Positions 31,824-42,116 of a DNA stretch of 44,485 nucleotides are shown in pieces. The notes beneath the pieces were generated by a model, which was not told the origin of the DNA, did not search any database, and saw only the letters and a list, made by a program, of their open reading frames with translations. Origin of the DNA: a virus. The translations under genes were made by a program, and so were the position numbers. Every line of letters begins with the position of its first letter. Position 1 is the stretch's first letter. The DNA lies in the IMG/VR virus record IMGVR_UViG_3300045988_082204, one strand, 5' to 3'.

Positions 31824-32263
31824 CAAAGACAGAGGCCATGACCAAAATGAAAGAAAAAGGCGCGGATGATGCGCTCAATCTGCGCGGACGCGCAAGCACG
31901 ATGGACGGCACGGCGATAATCGCGGAGGAAAGCAAAGTGCCGGACTTCGACGCGACGAAGGACTACAGTGCATGTCCCGTGGGAACGCCGGTGGCCGACG
32001 AGGGTCAGGTGTGGAAGCTTATCCAGCCCTATAACGCGGCGAATTATCAGGGCAGACCGTCAACGCTTCGCGCTCTGTGGGGGCTGTGCCACACGAAAGA
32101 CCCTACAAAGGCTAAAGCATGGGTAGCTCCTCTCGGAACGAGCGGCATGTACATGACCGGGGAGTGTTACCGTGATGCCGACGGCAAAGTGTATCGCTGC
32201 AAACAGGACAACTGCGTTTATGACGTGGCCGCGCTGCCGTCGGCGTGGGAGGATGCAGGATGA
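31820..32263 (+). CDS. Hypothetical protein, possibly carbohydrate-binding
   Basis: Trp/Tyr/Cys-rich C-terminal half (GQVWKLIQPYNAANYQG...ALWGLC...YRCKQDNCVYD). The call is weak. Confidence 0.45.
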   Translation: MTKTEAMTKMKEKGADDALNLRGRASTMDGTAIIAEESKVPDFDATKDYSACPVGTPVADEGQVWKLIQPYNAANYQGRPSTLRALWGLCHTKDPTKAKAWVAPLGTSGMYMTGECYRDADGKVYRCKQDNCVYDVAALPSAWEDAG

Positions 32264-39025: not shown

Positions 39026-40732
39026 CTATGTATTTGCGTTCGCCTGTGCGCGTAATAGCAACGATTCACGGTACTGTTCGGCTGGGGGCGTATCGATAAA
39101 TTCGACGGACTTATCAAAGTTTTCTTTAACTACTTTTTTAATCTCATCAAGAGTGACGTTAAAGAATTCTCTGCGCTGATTCACAAAATTCAGCTTGCGG
39201 TCTGCAAACGCATTATGCAGTGCGGCTTCAAGCTTCGGCGCATCATCGGAAAATATCATTGCATGAATATCAAATTTAAAGGGTACGGACGCATCGCCCA
39301 GCTCGTCAACACGGTCTGAAGGGTCAAGGCGGCGGGTCATGCCGATTTTATACACGTTTTCGCCGAACGCGCCGATATTAGATATAATGTAAACATATCC
39401 GGCGCGCTGGTTTGCTTCACGGTAATCAACTTCCTTGAACGCAGTGTCGATCTTATCAAGCTGCTGTTCGATGTGAGCTTTCTTTTCTTCTATGGCGGCG
39501 GCTTCGTCACCGGTCGCCTGTAAAAGCTGCGCGTTGATTTTTTCCAGCGCATTTTGATAATGCGTCTGTTCCTTTTCAAGCTTGCGGCGTTCTTCTTCCA
39601 ACTCGCGGGCAAGCCGCTGTGCTTCTTTCAGTTCGGCGCGGGCTTCTCGCTGCTCTTCTTTTTCCTGTTGCTTTTTCTGCTGCCACTCAAACGCAAGGTG
39701 AAGTTCATCAAGCTTCATTCCGTAGTAAACGGACGTTATGCTGATACCCATCATAGCACCGAGCTTTGATATGGCCTCACGCGACGCTGTTATGCGCCTT
39801 TCGCTGATTTCGACGTTGTTATATTTGACGTGTTCAACAACGTCGTCACATTCGGCATTGAATGCACGCAAAAGCAGCTTTTGCATGTCGGCGACCATCC
39901 TACCGCCTTTTTTAGTGTCGCCGTCTATAGCCCATGCTGTGCTGCCGCTGACCGCCGTGCCCTCGCGCACCGCGTCCTTTTGACGGGCACGAATTTCAAG
40001 CAGACGCGCCTTGTAATCGTCGGCGCGCATGAAATCATAATGCGGTGTGTACAGTCCAAAGCTTTGAAGCGAAACGACATCTTCAACTTCGGTGATCTGC
40101 TGCTTAACGGCGTTCAATTTTTCTTCACTTTCTTCAATTTGCTTGAGGTATTTATCATATAGGTTTTTTACCTTTTCAAGATCCATACCTTCTGTTTCGA
40201 CGATCCGGCATTTGACTTCATTAAGCTTTTCTTCGTTTTCTGCGATTTCTTTAAGGTACTTATCATTTTGGGCTTTCAGTTTCTGAACGTCCATCTTGAT
40301 ATCAACCAATTCGCTTTGCTCGGGGGTCAGTTGTTCGCGCAGCCTTGCATTTTCGCGACGCAGGCCGTCAAGATCGTCGCTGTGTACCTTACTGTTAACG
40401 CGATACACTGAATTATTTGTTGATAATCCATTGATTTTATCCATAGTGCACTGTTCACCGGCTTCATATCCCTGCGCCGATGATATATTGTTGCTTATCG
40501 GCGACGTGACCGGCTCAGGCGTCGGCTGCACGGGTTTAGCTGGTGGCGCTTCCTTTTTGTTCGGCTTCAACAGTATTGCAGCGATACCTAAGCAAAATAT
40601 AGCACCAAGTATCGTAACCGCTGTGTCATTATCAGGCATTTTCGGAGCAAAAATCAACCACACACCGGCAATAGCGAAGACGACACCATAAATAACCTTG
40701 ATGACGTGCAATATCTTTTTTAATATGTCCAT
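39026..40732 (-). CDS. TM + coiled-coil + DUF4041-like + T5orf172 (MUG113/GIY-YIG-like) protein
   Basis: Two N-terminal hydrophobic segments. Duplicated coiled-coil unit (DKYLKEIAENEEKLNEV / DKYLKQIEESEEKLNAV). SFGLYTPHYDF...LLLRAFNAECD central region. C-terminal GYVYIISN...VYKIGMTRRLDPSDRVDELG. SD AGGGGGA lies 6 nt upstream. Confidence 0.8.
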   Translation of the reverse strand: MDILKKILHVIKVIYGVVFAIAGVWLIFAPKMPDNDTAVTILGAIFCLGIAAILLKPNKKEAPPAKPVQPTPEPVTSPISNNISSAQGYEAGEQCTMDKINGLSTNNSVYRVNSKVHSDDLDGLRRENARLREQLTPEQSELVDIKMDVQKLKAQNDKYLKEIAENEEKLNEVKCRIVETEGMDLEKVKNLYDKYLKQIEESEEKLNAVKQQITEVEDVVSLQSFGLYTPHYDFMRADDYKARLLEIRARQKDAVREGTAVSGSTAWAIDGDTKKGGRMVADMQKLLLRAFNAECDDVVEHVKYNNVEISERRITASREAISKLGAMMGISITSVYYGMKLDELHLAFEWQQKKQQEKEEQREARAELKEAQRLARELEEERRKLEKEQTHYQNALEKINAQLLQATGDEAAAIEEKKAHIEQQLDKIDTAFKEVDYREANQRAGYVYIISNIGAFGENVYKIGMTRRLDPSDRVDELGDASVPFKFDIHAMIFSDDAPKLEAALHNAFADRKLNFVNQRREFFNVTLDEIKKVVKENFDKSVEFIDTPPAEQYRESLLLRAQANANT

Positions 40733-40905
40733 ATTATTCCCCCTAAATTAGATTTACTACACAATATTACCACTCTCAACGGCGAAATTCCACGATTTTC
40801 AACAATTTCGGCTGATTGCTTAATAACAGCAATCTCGACTTGTGTACATTGCCCATATAATCCACCACGCAAATTGTACAAAAAGGATGTTTTACGTTTG
40901 TGCAT
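40720..40905 (-). CDS. Possible small XRE-like HTH protein, translationally coupled to the DUF4041 gene
   Basis: CTQVEIAVIKQSAEIVENRGISP resembles an HTH_3 core. The 3' end contains the SD and start of the downstream gene (13-nt overlap). It has no convincing SD of its own. Confidence 0.35.
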   Translation of the reverse strand: MHKRKTSFLYNLRGGLYGQCTQVEIAVIKQSAEIVENRGISPLRVVILCSKSNLGGIIWTY

Positions 40906-40936
40906 AACAAGAATGGACGAATATACGCAATTGTGC

Positions 40937-40982
40937 TAATATCTTTACAAGATAATAAACGATAAATAATATCTTAACAAGA
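40937..40982. repeat. Two 16-nt direct repeats, 30 nt apart, in the upstream region of the XRE/DUF4041 pair
   Basis: taatatctttacaaga (40937-40952) and taatatcttaacaaga (40967-40982). Confidence 0.6.
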
Positions 40983-40994
40983 CAATTGACAGTT

Positions 40995-41021
40995 AATAAA
41001 AAGCTCCCCGTTTAGGGGAGC
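40995..41021 (-). terminator. Rho-independent terminator (minus strand) ending the toxN transcription unit
   Basis: 7-bp stem gctcccc/ggggagc, 5-nt loop, followed on the minus strand by TTTTTATT. Confidence 0.65.
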
Positions 41022-41042
41022 GAGGGTTAGTTGCAAGCCGCC

Positions 41043-41229
41043 TATTTATAAGTCCCCGAACGGCAGGGGGCAGTTAATAGCAGGTCGCATATTTATAAGC
41101 CGCCTTACGACAGGCGGCAAAGGTGGCCATCATCTCGGTGAGCATTTTTTATTTTACCCATCTCGCGCCCTACGAGATGATCTTCTCGGTGGGACTTCTT
41201 TATTTATACGGCTCGACTCCCTCCGAGCC
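41043..41229. repeat. Array of 29-nt AT-box + hairpin modules, plus a segment with mutually exclusive pairings
   Basis: Three modules of identical architecture: tatttata(a/c), 6-bp GC stem, 8-nt loop, 6-bp stem. They lie at 41043-41071, 41090-41118 and 41201-41229, and each has a different stem sequence. Between them, 41129-41137 and 41159-41165 both complement 41173-41181. Confidence 0.6.
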
Positions 41230-41243
41230 AGTGCTAACATTGA

Positions 41244-41729
41244 TTATCGGTTCGGGTCAAATTGCTTACAGGCTTTTTCAAGCTTCTTGAAATTGCAGCA
41301 AATCTCCTTGAGAAACTTGTTTTCACTGTTTACGACTTCATAATAAGTCCGAGACGCTTTGTTAAGTATATCGGTTTTGTTTCGATTACAGAAATACGCC
41401 TGTTTCTTCAACAGCATTGCGTAATGGGCGCTTGGTTCGTCATCGATATTAAAGGATATCAAAACATCGTCCCTGACAGGTATCATATTGTTAAAGCCCA
41501 GCAGACCCAATCTGCCTTTGTCCATCTTGAGAATATGTATTCCCGGTTTTATTTTTTCGTGAGCCGGTTTAGGTGATTCCATCGGCACAAAATATTTAAA
41601 TTCGCCGACGTGAAGTACGACTCCAACATAAGGGCGCAAATGGTGCTTGTTGAGCTGTACTCGGCTGTCACGGCTGTGTAAAAAGGCGACGTATTTATCT
41701 TTAACCCTATAGATTTTTAAATTTTCCAT
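41244..41729 (-). CDS. toxN: Type III toxin-antitoxin toxin, ToxN/AbiQ family endoribonuclease
   Basis: KIYRVKDKYVAFL...RPYVGVVLHVGEFKYFVPMESPK...LGLLGFNNMIPV...CNFKKLE aligns by eye with ToxN/AbiQ. A tandem RNA-repeat array and a terminator lie immediately upstream. Confidence 0.85.
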   Translation of the reverse strand: MENLKIYRVKDKYVAFLHSRDSRVQLNKHHLRPYVGVVLHVGEFKYFVPMESPKPAHEKIKPGIHILKMDKGRLGLLGFNNMIPVRDDVLISFNIDDEPSAHYAMLLKKQAYFCNRNKTDILNKASRTYYEVVNSENKFLKEICCNFKKLEKACKQFDPNR

Positions 41730-41758: not shown

Positions 41759-41787
41759 AGGCGAGACAGGAAATGCCCATCTCGCCT
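41759..41787 (-). terminator. Hairpin between the repeat array and toxN (attenuating terminator, as in ToxIN loci)
   Basis: 8-bp stem aggcgaga/tctcgcct, 13-nt loop. On the minus strand it is followed by CTTTTAAAT. Confidence 0.55.
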
Positions 41788-41893
41788 TTTTCAGTCCCTA
41801 CTTACGGTAAGGGTTCACCGCTTTTTTCTGTCCTGACTTTCGGCTCAGGTTATCCGCTTTTTTCTGTCCCTACTTAAAGGTAAGGGTTTCCCT
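41786..41893 (-). ncRNA. toxI: ToxI/antiQ-like antitoxin RNA: 3 tandem repeats of 35-37 nt
   Basis: Units at 41786-41820, 41821-41856 and 41857-41893. The minus-strand consensus is ..GG..AACC[short hairpin]AC.GAAAAA(A)G. Unit 2 has a different but still self-complementary stem. Confidence 0.75.
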
Positions 41894-41954
41894 CTTGGGG
41901 CTGACATGGAACGGTTGTTTCAATGTCATGGTAAGCATCGCTGCTTACATCTTT

Positions 41955-41982
41955 ATTATACGCAAAGCTTAGAAAAAATCAA
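41955..41982 (-). promoter_or_regulatory. Sigma-70-type promoter for toxI-toxN
   Basis: On the minus strand: TTGATT, 16 nt, TATAAT (plus-strand aatcaa 41977-41982, attata 41955-41960). Confidence 0.6.
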
Positions 41983-42116
41983 CACGGGAGAGTGAACGTT
42001 AACAACATTTTAGCAAAACTCACAAAGCGAAACGTTAGAATACAGCAGAATAAACGAAAAGTCAACTAAAATTAACGAAATATAGCGAATGAGCAAAAAT
42101 GGAAGGGAGAACAAAG

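Follow-up and report, generated by a model that had tools for sequence, protein, structure and literature searches.

Layout of the toxIN locus

We analysed a stretch of viral DNA of 44,485 nucleotides (nt), IMG/VR record IMGVR_UViG_3300045988_082204, which is referred to below as the window. Its minus strand carries a type III toxin-antitoxin operon, toxIN, in which the toxin gene is followed by an array of small structured RNA units. An initial annotation, made from the letters alone, had described this array as three hairpin modules (41043–41071, 41090–41118 and 41201–41229) between toxN and its terminator. The three modules were present at exactly these coordinates. However, minus strand 41235–41026 holds four tandem head-to-tail units, not three, and the evidence given below indicates that they form a toxin-less ('orphan') type III antitoxin array, in which two TenpI units are followed by two CptI units. 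The records nearest to the window were viral contigs, and no similar DNA was found by blastn against the GenBank phages. The features of the locus are as follows (S1 and S2, stems; L1 and L2, loops; R1, R2 and R3, our own covariance models).

41955–41982, minus: promoter of the toxIN operon (TTGATT, 16 nt, TATAAT; promoter prediction)
41789–41896, minus: three ToxI repeats of 36 nt, the cognate antitoxin of ToxN (R3: 50.3, 49.2 and 44.8 bits)
41759–41787, minus: attenuating terminator hairpin that separates toxI and toxN
41244–41729, minus: toxN, 161 amino acids (aa), intact (Pfam ToxN_toxin, E 1.3e-52; PADLOC AbiQ, E 5.6e-46)
41184–41235, minus: unit 1, TenpI-type, Rp1-like, module 3 of the initial annotation (R1: 32.5 bits); S1 41229–41224/41215–41210; S2 GGGA 41221–41218/UCCC 41194–41191; L2 41209–41195
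41133–41183, minus: unit 2, TenpI-type, Rp2-like (Rfam RF02925: 55.7 bits, threshold 41.2; R1: 72.6 bits); S1 41179–41173/41165–41159; S2 GGGC 41170–41167/GCUC 41143–41140; L2 41158–41144
41119–41132, minus: junction spacer UGAUGGCCACCUUU, the 5' half of a tenpI terminator that is whole in L119 and L130
41073–41122, minus: unit 3, CptI-type, module 2 of the initial annotation (R2: 67.3 bits); S1 41118–41113/41104–41099; L1 U 41112; S2 GUCGU 41111–41107/GCGAC 41088–41084; L2 41098–41089
41026–41072, minus: unit 4, CptI-type, module 1 of the initial annotation (R2: 72.6 bits); S1 41071–41066/41057–41052, with a C.A mismatch at the second pair; S2 GCCGU 41064–41060/GCGGC 41041–41037; L2 41051–41042
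40998–41025, minus: CCUC (5' half of the L093 cptI hairpin), then a strong intrinsic terminator (GCUCCCC-UAAAC-GGGGAGC and a U-run) that ends the operon

The array starts 14 nt past the stop codon of toxN and extends to the terminator of the operon, beyond which lies the gene for a PD-Lambda-1 homologue. The toxIN promoter was the sole promoter-like site upstream of the array on the minus strand. A repeat search of the window returned a 47-nt tandem pair (41026–41072 and 41073–41119, 77% identical) and a 51-nt-spaced repeat (41129–41154 and 41180–41205). Default cmsearch gave one unit per pair, apparently from the 1–3 nt overlap of adjacent matches, and units 1 and 3 were scored separately. 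The ToxI repeats of the window reached 30 bits with the Rfam ToxI model, which is under that model's threshold.

Units 1 and 2 and the Rfam 6A family

The initial annotation had proposed a covariance-model check against Rfam. Run on the window, it gave a single significant match, the 6A RNA (RF02925) at 41183–41133 on the minus strand, with 55.7 bits against a threshold of 41.2. This match is unit 2. Unit 1 was overlooked by the Rfam 6A model and was found with model R1, which was built from 58 TenpI units. The Rfam entry describes 6A as a small RNA of unknown function, and the main text of the paper that reported its discovery does not discuss it.

We made several observations on the genes that accompany 6A units. 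First, the record G141 contains, in order, a promoter, two perfect 52-nt 6A units, a terminator hairpin and an open reading frame (ORF) of 142 aa, which scored 140.5 bits with NCBIfam TenpIN (cut-off 90). In addition, all five independent 6A-pattern loci in the viral contigs consisted of two units, a terminator and a tenpN homologue. Finally, tenpN started 40–60 nt past the last unit in 46 of the 57 metagenome 6A-pattern loci that had at least 300 nt of downstream sequence. Two of these 57 were false coding matches, leaving 55 true loci; tenpN was absent at nine of the 55 and truncated at four more (L126, L145, L147 and L165). The loci were collected via toxin homology or sequence patterns, and their frequencies are rough. 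Because 6A units precede tenpN in G141 and in the viral and metagenome loci, we identify 6A as the repeat unit of TenpI, the antitoxin of the tenpIN type III systems. Only one of 151 genomes gave an Rfam 6A match; these genomes belong to the order of the L072 genome (titled Faecalibacterium prausnitzii) and are likely hosts.

The TenpI units of the window have counterparts in a complete system. The contig L130 carries a complete tenpIN with the same promoter as the toxIN operon of the window, and unit 2 agrees with its repeat Rp2, which lies upstream of tenpN, at 49 of 51 positions. The S2 variant of unit 1, GGGA/UCCC, also occurs in Rp1 of L130. This locus was found through the general 6A pattern. 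The exact tail of unit 1, used as a query, returned no new tenpIN locus in the viral or metagenome contigs. The initial annotation had also reported a 12-mer that occurs twice in the array. The repetition is real, and we reinterpreted it as the conserved TenpI unit boundary, CACCGAGA followed by AGAU.

The array shares several features with described TenpI systems (Blower 2012, PMC3401426; Nadig 2025, PMC12283969; cryo-EM 2026, PMC13682666). Both have two non-identical tandem repeats of about 51 nt, the boundary CAC(C/U)GAGA followed by AGAU, and a score above the Rfam threshold; both have H-type pseudoknots in which S1 and the A-rich L2 are long and S2 is short. Unlike in TenpI systems, tenpN is missing from the whole window, and the array lies behind toxN with no separate promoter. 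Its tenpI terminator is halved and fused to CptI repeats.

Covariation of the predicted pseudoknots

The fold of the TenpI units was assessed on an alignment of 58 distinct units, those of the window included. S1 was paired in 95.9% of cases, and all seven of its pairs covaried. S2, formed by four loop bases with four bases past the A-run, was paired in 98.7%, with compensatory changes at three of its four pairs. These values were reached by none of 500 shuffles, and slid controls were 29–42% paired. The S2 variants comprised GAGC/GCUC, GGGC/GCCC, GGAC/GUCC, GAAC/GUUC, GAGU/ACUC and GGGA/UCCC; in the window, unit 1 has GGGA/UCCC and unit 2 GGGC/GCUC. The Rfam 6A model does not include S2. In the close CptI subfamily, 91.8% of the cells were paired and compensatory changes occurred at two S2 pairs. 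These results indicate that each unit is folded as a predicted H-type pseudoknot made of S1, an A-rich L2 and S2. For TenpI, an H-type pseudoknot with a long A-rich L2 was predicted by Nadig et al. (PMC12283969) and has been seen by cryo-EM (PMC13682666). The minimum free energy (MFE) fold of the region had a z-score of -2.8, but MFE folding is uninformative for pseudoknots and forms long-range helices instead.

The pseudoknot fold changes how the modules of the initial annotation are to be read. The reading as a structured RNA array on the toxN strand is borne out. The 6-bp stem of each module is the S1 of a pseudoknot, whereas the 'AT box' turned out to be the A-rich loop L2, and S2 had been overlooked. 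The AT box itself is enriched: the window holds six copies of TATTTATAM where 0.9 would be expected, 0 of 100 shuffles had as many, and three of the six copies lie in the array. The three modules had been taken as one set, which does not hold, since they belong to two RNA families and a fourth unit, 41183–41133 (the Rfam 6A match), was left out. The 9-nt inverted repeat 41129–41137/41173–41181 is exact. The mutually exclusive helices proposed for it are not upheld, as the distal arm is unconserved (GAGAATATCT in L070; GATAAT or GACAAT in other relatives); the hairpin of unit 2 had been noted only in the form of these helices. The G.U pair in the stem of module 1 is a C.A mismatch on the transcribed minus strand, and the same mismatch occurs in the genuine cptI of L093, L119 and L179.

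Units 3 and 4 and the CptI family

A pattern derived from units 3 and 4 matched 15 viral loci. One of them, L093 (identical to L103; record G157), has the toxIN promoter and leader hairpin of the window, followed by two 47-nt units, a hairpin and an ORF of 156 aa. The protein scored 118 bits with NCBIfam CptIN and matched the CptN of PDB 4rmo with an E-value of 2.6e-21. Unit 4 is 100% identical to Rp2 of L093, which lies upstream of cptN, and unit 3 is about 90% identical to the L093 repeats. Twelve further cptN loci, in Clostridia genomes, have tandem upstream units, all on one common plan: S1, a short L1, an S2 of 4–7 bp and an A/U-rich L2 of 6–13 nt. The CptI units of the window are two 47-nt repeats with U as L1, an L2 of 10 nt and an S2 of 5 bp.

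In the crystal structure, the pseudoknot of CptI of Eubacterium rectale spans 45 nt; its L1 is a single base, and its A-rich L2, of 9 nt, contains a kink U (PMC4627078). The units of the window share with this system (PDB 4RMO; Rao 2015, PMC4627078) the tandem repeats, 47 nt here versus 45 nt, as well as S1, the one-base L1, an A-rich L2 of 9–10 nt with U 'kink' positions, and S2. In contrast to the E. rectale system, there is no cptN here, the repeats sit inside a composite array, and the sequence is unrelated apart from the architecture.

The C.A mismatch at the second S1 pair (A2 alignment columns 6/23; 41070/41053 in unit 4) was seen in six of nine units of the CptI subfamily. This group includes both genuine L093 repeats, and unit 3 and several orphan copies have C-G instead.

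Absence of the cognate toxins from the window

We searched the window for tenpN and cptN with tblastn (7 TenpN and 14 CptN queries) and found neither. The sole match was that of the L093 CptN to toxN itself (E 0.003), as expected between distantly related toxins. The array is not matched by the ToxI model R3, which matches only 41789–41896, and it is distinct from the upstream ToxI repeats, as the initial annotation had held. ToxN homologues at 59–89% identity have no array. The array is thus not the partner of ToxN, because the ToxI model fails to match it and the ToxN homologues lack it; its proposed role as a partner or regulator of that toxin was abandoned. The UUAUAAAUA box had been noted to contain a motif cut by some ToxN enzymes. 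It is not a ToxN cut site, because it is the A-rich L2 of CptI/TenpI-type pseudoknots (PMC4627078, PMC13682666). As judged by homology, this phage appears to carry one toxin but antidotes to three families.

Related cassettes and orphan arrays in other contigs

The locus beside the repressor gene is a spot for variable cargo. In L002 and L004–L007, the flanks on the repressor side and on the PD-Lambda-1 side are kept, and the block of about 1.1 kb that comprises toxI, toxN, the array and the terminator is absent. The promoter-leader of the window is found again with cptIN in L093/L103, with tenpIN in L130 and with a toxin-less array in L119. In these phages, alternative toxIN, cptIN and tenpIN cassettes lie under one shared promoter-leader by the repressor gene.

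An identical ToxN is encoded in 11 other contigs (L070 and L183–L192). The tenpI pair follows it in all 11 and the cptI pair in six. Thus, toxIN with the two tenpI units only is found in L070 and four of the ten further contigs, and toxIN with two tenpI and two cptI units in the window and the other six of the ten, in which the backbones and the downstream cargo differ. The reciprocal layout occurs in a sister phage (G157, L193), where cptIN is followed by a second promoter and then by toxin-less toxI (three repeats) and tenpI (two units). In L119, two cptI units and one tenpI unit follow the shared promoter, and no type III toxin is present in 13.9 kb. In L179 (genome G349; 1900–2920, minus), tenpIN (NCBIfam, 135 bits) and cptIN are both complete and lie in direct succession, tenpIN first. 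This tandem adjoins an apparent prophage repressor gene, judged by eye from the translated C-terminus only. It is plausible that the tenpIN-cptIN tandem of L179 represents the ancestral state, or a precursor, of the composite orphan arrays.

Toxin-less units also occur at other sites. Two ToxI repeats and a terminator, without toxN, lie beside a PD-Lambda-1 homologue in L003 (1620–1735), and a toxin-less TenpI pair of a second subtype, resembling the tenpI of L179, lies beside one in L012 (4000–4100). Fourteen related phage contigs (L087–L092 and L094–L101; e.g., L087:2404–2660) carry in their late region one cptI-like unit, identical to unit 4 at 44 of 44 positions, and one tenpI-like unit that shares 98% identity with unit 2. 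The two are about 100 nt apart, between tail-fibre-like and lysin-like genes, and the intervening DNA is flanked by A-runs. No type III toxin was found in G158 and G159, the two late-region records that were scanned whole. The window lacks the late-region insert (equivalent site 32256–32263). At every junction examined in these relatives and in the window, the pseudoknots are uncut and all breaks fall between units.

Further composite arrays, in which a ToxI array comes directly after toxin-less tenpI units, an order that differs from that of the window, were seen in the metagenome contigs L160 (3790–4150) and L149 (1–360). In L149, a toxN homologue comes after the ToxI array.

A possible decoy function of the array

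Our preferred reading, to which we assign a probability of about 50%, is that the array would provide decoy antidotes against the TenpN and CptN of rivals. The toxin genes would have been lost by illegitimate recombination among allelic or tandem cassettes, and the antitoxin repeats would have stayed. Because no promoter of its own was predicted, the array would depend on read-through from the promoter of toxIN, and its RNA would form the 3' end of that operon's transcript. At the unit boundaries, this RNA would be cleaved by TenpN or CptN, whether supplied by the host, by a prophage in the same cell or by a competing phage, and the toxin would then stay locked in inactive 2:2 toxin-RNA complexes, after the CptIN and TenpIN structures. 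The phage or lysogen would be shielded from TenpN and CptN as abortive-infection and addiction toxins, much as the pseudo-ToxI of phage PhiTE acts against ToxN. One CptI or TenpI repeat suffices for antitoxicity (PMC4627078, PMC13682666). We infer that the 'decoy' and 'second processed RNA' options of the initial annotation are still the leading functional reading.

More broadly, and with somewhat less confidence, the locus might be a hub of the type III arms race, in which one transcript arms the lysogen with ToxN and gives immunity to TenpN and CptN. Just as tentatively, these phages would also collect the RNA antidotes of alleles that they do not carry, as a multi-specificity RNA counter-defence array.

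The pseudo-ToxI of PhiTE is the phage precedent and protects from ToxN (Pectobacterium phage; Blower 2012, PMC3475682). It is likewise a phage-borne, toxin-less, intergenic type III repeat; it can neutralise an Abi toxin of type III, and recombination accounts for its gain or expansion. However, its mimicry is confined to one family, ToxI, and it became effective only after expansion. The array of the window combines two other families in full-length units that are nearly identical to natural antitoxins, and it sits on an intact toxIN in a temperate gut phage. The array also resembles orphan antitoxins used in counter-defence, such as the phage DarG-like antitoxins (PMC11257639), in that a toxin-less antitoxin on a mobile element could neutralise a toxin from elsewhere. 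The DarG-like antitoxins are proteins, whereas the array of the window is RNA and covers several toxin families. The chromosomal ccd anti-addiction system likewise has a protein antitoxin without its toxin.

Several points weigh against a decoy function. No promoter was predicted directly upstream of the array, and its position behind the toxI attenuator may keep the RNA scarce. At its 3' boundary, unit 2 has GAGA-UGAU, where the usual form is GAGA-AGA. The junctions resemble recombination scars: the 14 nt after unit 2 (41119–41132) are the 5' half of the tenpI terminator of L130 and L119, and CCUC after unit 4 (41022–41025) is the 5' half of the L093 cptI hairpin. L130 has neither orphan cptI nor orphan toxI, and 'one toxin plus the other antidotes' is no rule. 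Deletion of the toxin only is the one type of deletion that a toxin-antitoxin locus tolerates, and orphan arrays are therefore expected without selection. The substitutions in the orphan copies keep the pairing, and every one that falls in a paired position is a transition compatible with wobble pairing, but their number is too small to demonstrate purifying selection. Finally, the ToxN-linked copies are all recent descendants, with ToxN 100% identical.

Alternative explanations

The strongest alternative keeps the TenpI and CptI identity of the units and regards the array as a functionless, recent remnant of toxin loss that hitch-hikes with toxIN until it decays. We consider this a serious possibility, although on balance it has less than an even chance. 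The truncated terminators at the junctions agree with it, and the complete tenpIN-cptIN tandem of L179 offers a plausible ancestral state. It is also favoured by the truncated tenpN at four 6A loci, by the several loci where the toxin is absent, and by the two toxI repeats and terminator that remain without toxN in L003. The cptI pair appears dispensable, because it is missing in four of the ten further contigs with the identical ToxN. The copies are all nearly identical, which leaves little time for decay. A remnant accounts less well for the completeness of all units and for junctions that fall between units but never within a pseudoknot. At least five different junctions are represented among the recurrent orphan arrays, and the arrays of G157 and L119 have an own or shared promoter and a closing terminator. 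In addition, single units stand in the late region of 14 phages, two of whose records were scanned whole without a type III toxin, and phage genomes are compact.

It is improbable that the array serves its own operon, either as an element of the 3' untranslated region that stabilises or tunes the toxN mRNA or as a second antitoxin or decoy for ToxN. Its site, 14 nt past the toxN stop codon and ahead of the operon terminator, would suit such a role, as would its presence in 12 of 12 instances of this exact ToxN and its A-rich stretches, which are similar to ToxN-type cut sites. Nevertheless, ToxN homologues at 59–89% identity do without it and the ToxI model fails to match it, and the same units occur without toxN in G157, L119, L130 and the 14 late-region loci. 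To our knowledge, type III antitoxin specificity is strict across families. Each type III toxin tested was neutralised by its own cognate repeats (PMC3401426).

The idea of generic hairpin filler (stacked terminators, an insulator, repetitive extragenic palindromic (REP)-like repeats or a protein-binding DNA array) draws on the GC-rich hairpins beside AT-rich boxes, the intergenic site and the MFE z-score of -2.8, but we regard it as highly improbable and, on homology and covariation, already refuted, since an A-rich loop of the UAUAAAUA type, and not a U-run, comes after each of the four unit hairpins, the units score 32–73 bits with covariance models from repeats upstream of tenpN and cptN, the pseudoknot S2 covaries, and only the annotated terminator at 41021–41003 (minus, with a T-run after it) scores as a terminator.

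Neighbouring genes and other observations

The gene downstream of the operon terminator (39026–40732, minus) encodes a protein of 568 aa that matches PD-Lambda-1/SNIPE (PADLOC, 514 bits) and is itself variable cargo. It is absent in G157, and in contigs with the same toxIN cassette it is replaced by a BLIP/DUF3862-like protein or by other genes. A role of the array as antitoxin of this gene was rejected; the gene is PD-Lambda-1/SNIPE, and its upstream regions in L002 and L004–L007 have no array. In a model search of 68 loci of PD-Lambda-1 homologues, only L003 and L012 had type III RNA units.

Two 30-nt direct repeats, 77% identical, lie at 40937–40996 between the array terminator and the PD-Lambda-1 gene. 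Each holds an operator-like palindrome, ATCTT-N3-AAGAT, and a promoter-like site (40980–40952, minus) overlaps them. Several short direct repeats (D5, D6, D9, D13 and D20) connect 40860–40985 with 41940–42080 at a spacing of about 1095 nt. They show that the sequence preceding toxI is a diverged copy of that preceding the PD-Lambda-1 gene, and the inserted cassette thus has duplicated promoter-region DNA on both sides.

A tRNA fragment or attachment site was rejected as an explanation of the region, as ARAGORN found no tRNA in the window. Two Rfam motifs of unknown function were seen beside other toxIN loci: the Skipping-rope RNA (77 bits) upstream of toxIN in L072 (1855–1932; contig titled Faecalibacterium prausnitzii) and the Gut-1 RNA (56.7 bits) downstream of toxN in L076 (3168–3242), a metagenome-assembled genome of Acutalibacteraceae.

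Significance

Type III antitoxins, orphan antitoxins and one phage antitoxin mimic are known already. The link between Rfam 6A and TenpI, with the additional pseudoknot stem, has no earlier report in the literature that we searched. New as far as we found are also the composite arrays of natural temperate phages, in which the antitoxins of two other families accompany a third system that is intact, together with the reciprocal layout of the sister phage. Through the first of these, 6A (RF02925), an unexplained RNA family, gains a probable function as the TenpI antitoxin. If the array is inactive, it still documents the swapping and decay of type III cassettes at a phage hot spot. It would also serve as a warning to annotators that toxin-less antitoxin arrays are common, given the nine of 55 true 6A loci without tenpN. 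Should the array prove active, it would be the earliest natural example of an RNA counter-defence that acts on several toxin families in type III abortive infection, and would widen the single, laboratory-evolved precedent of PhiTE.

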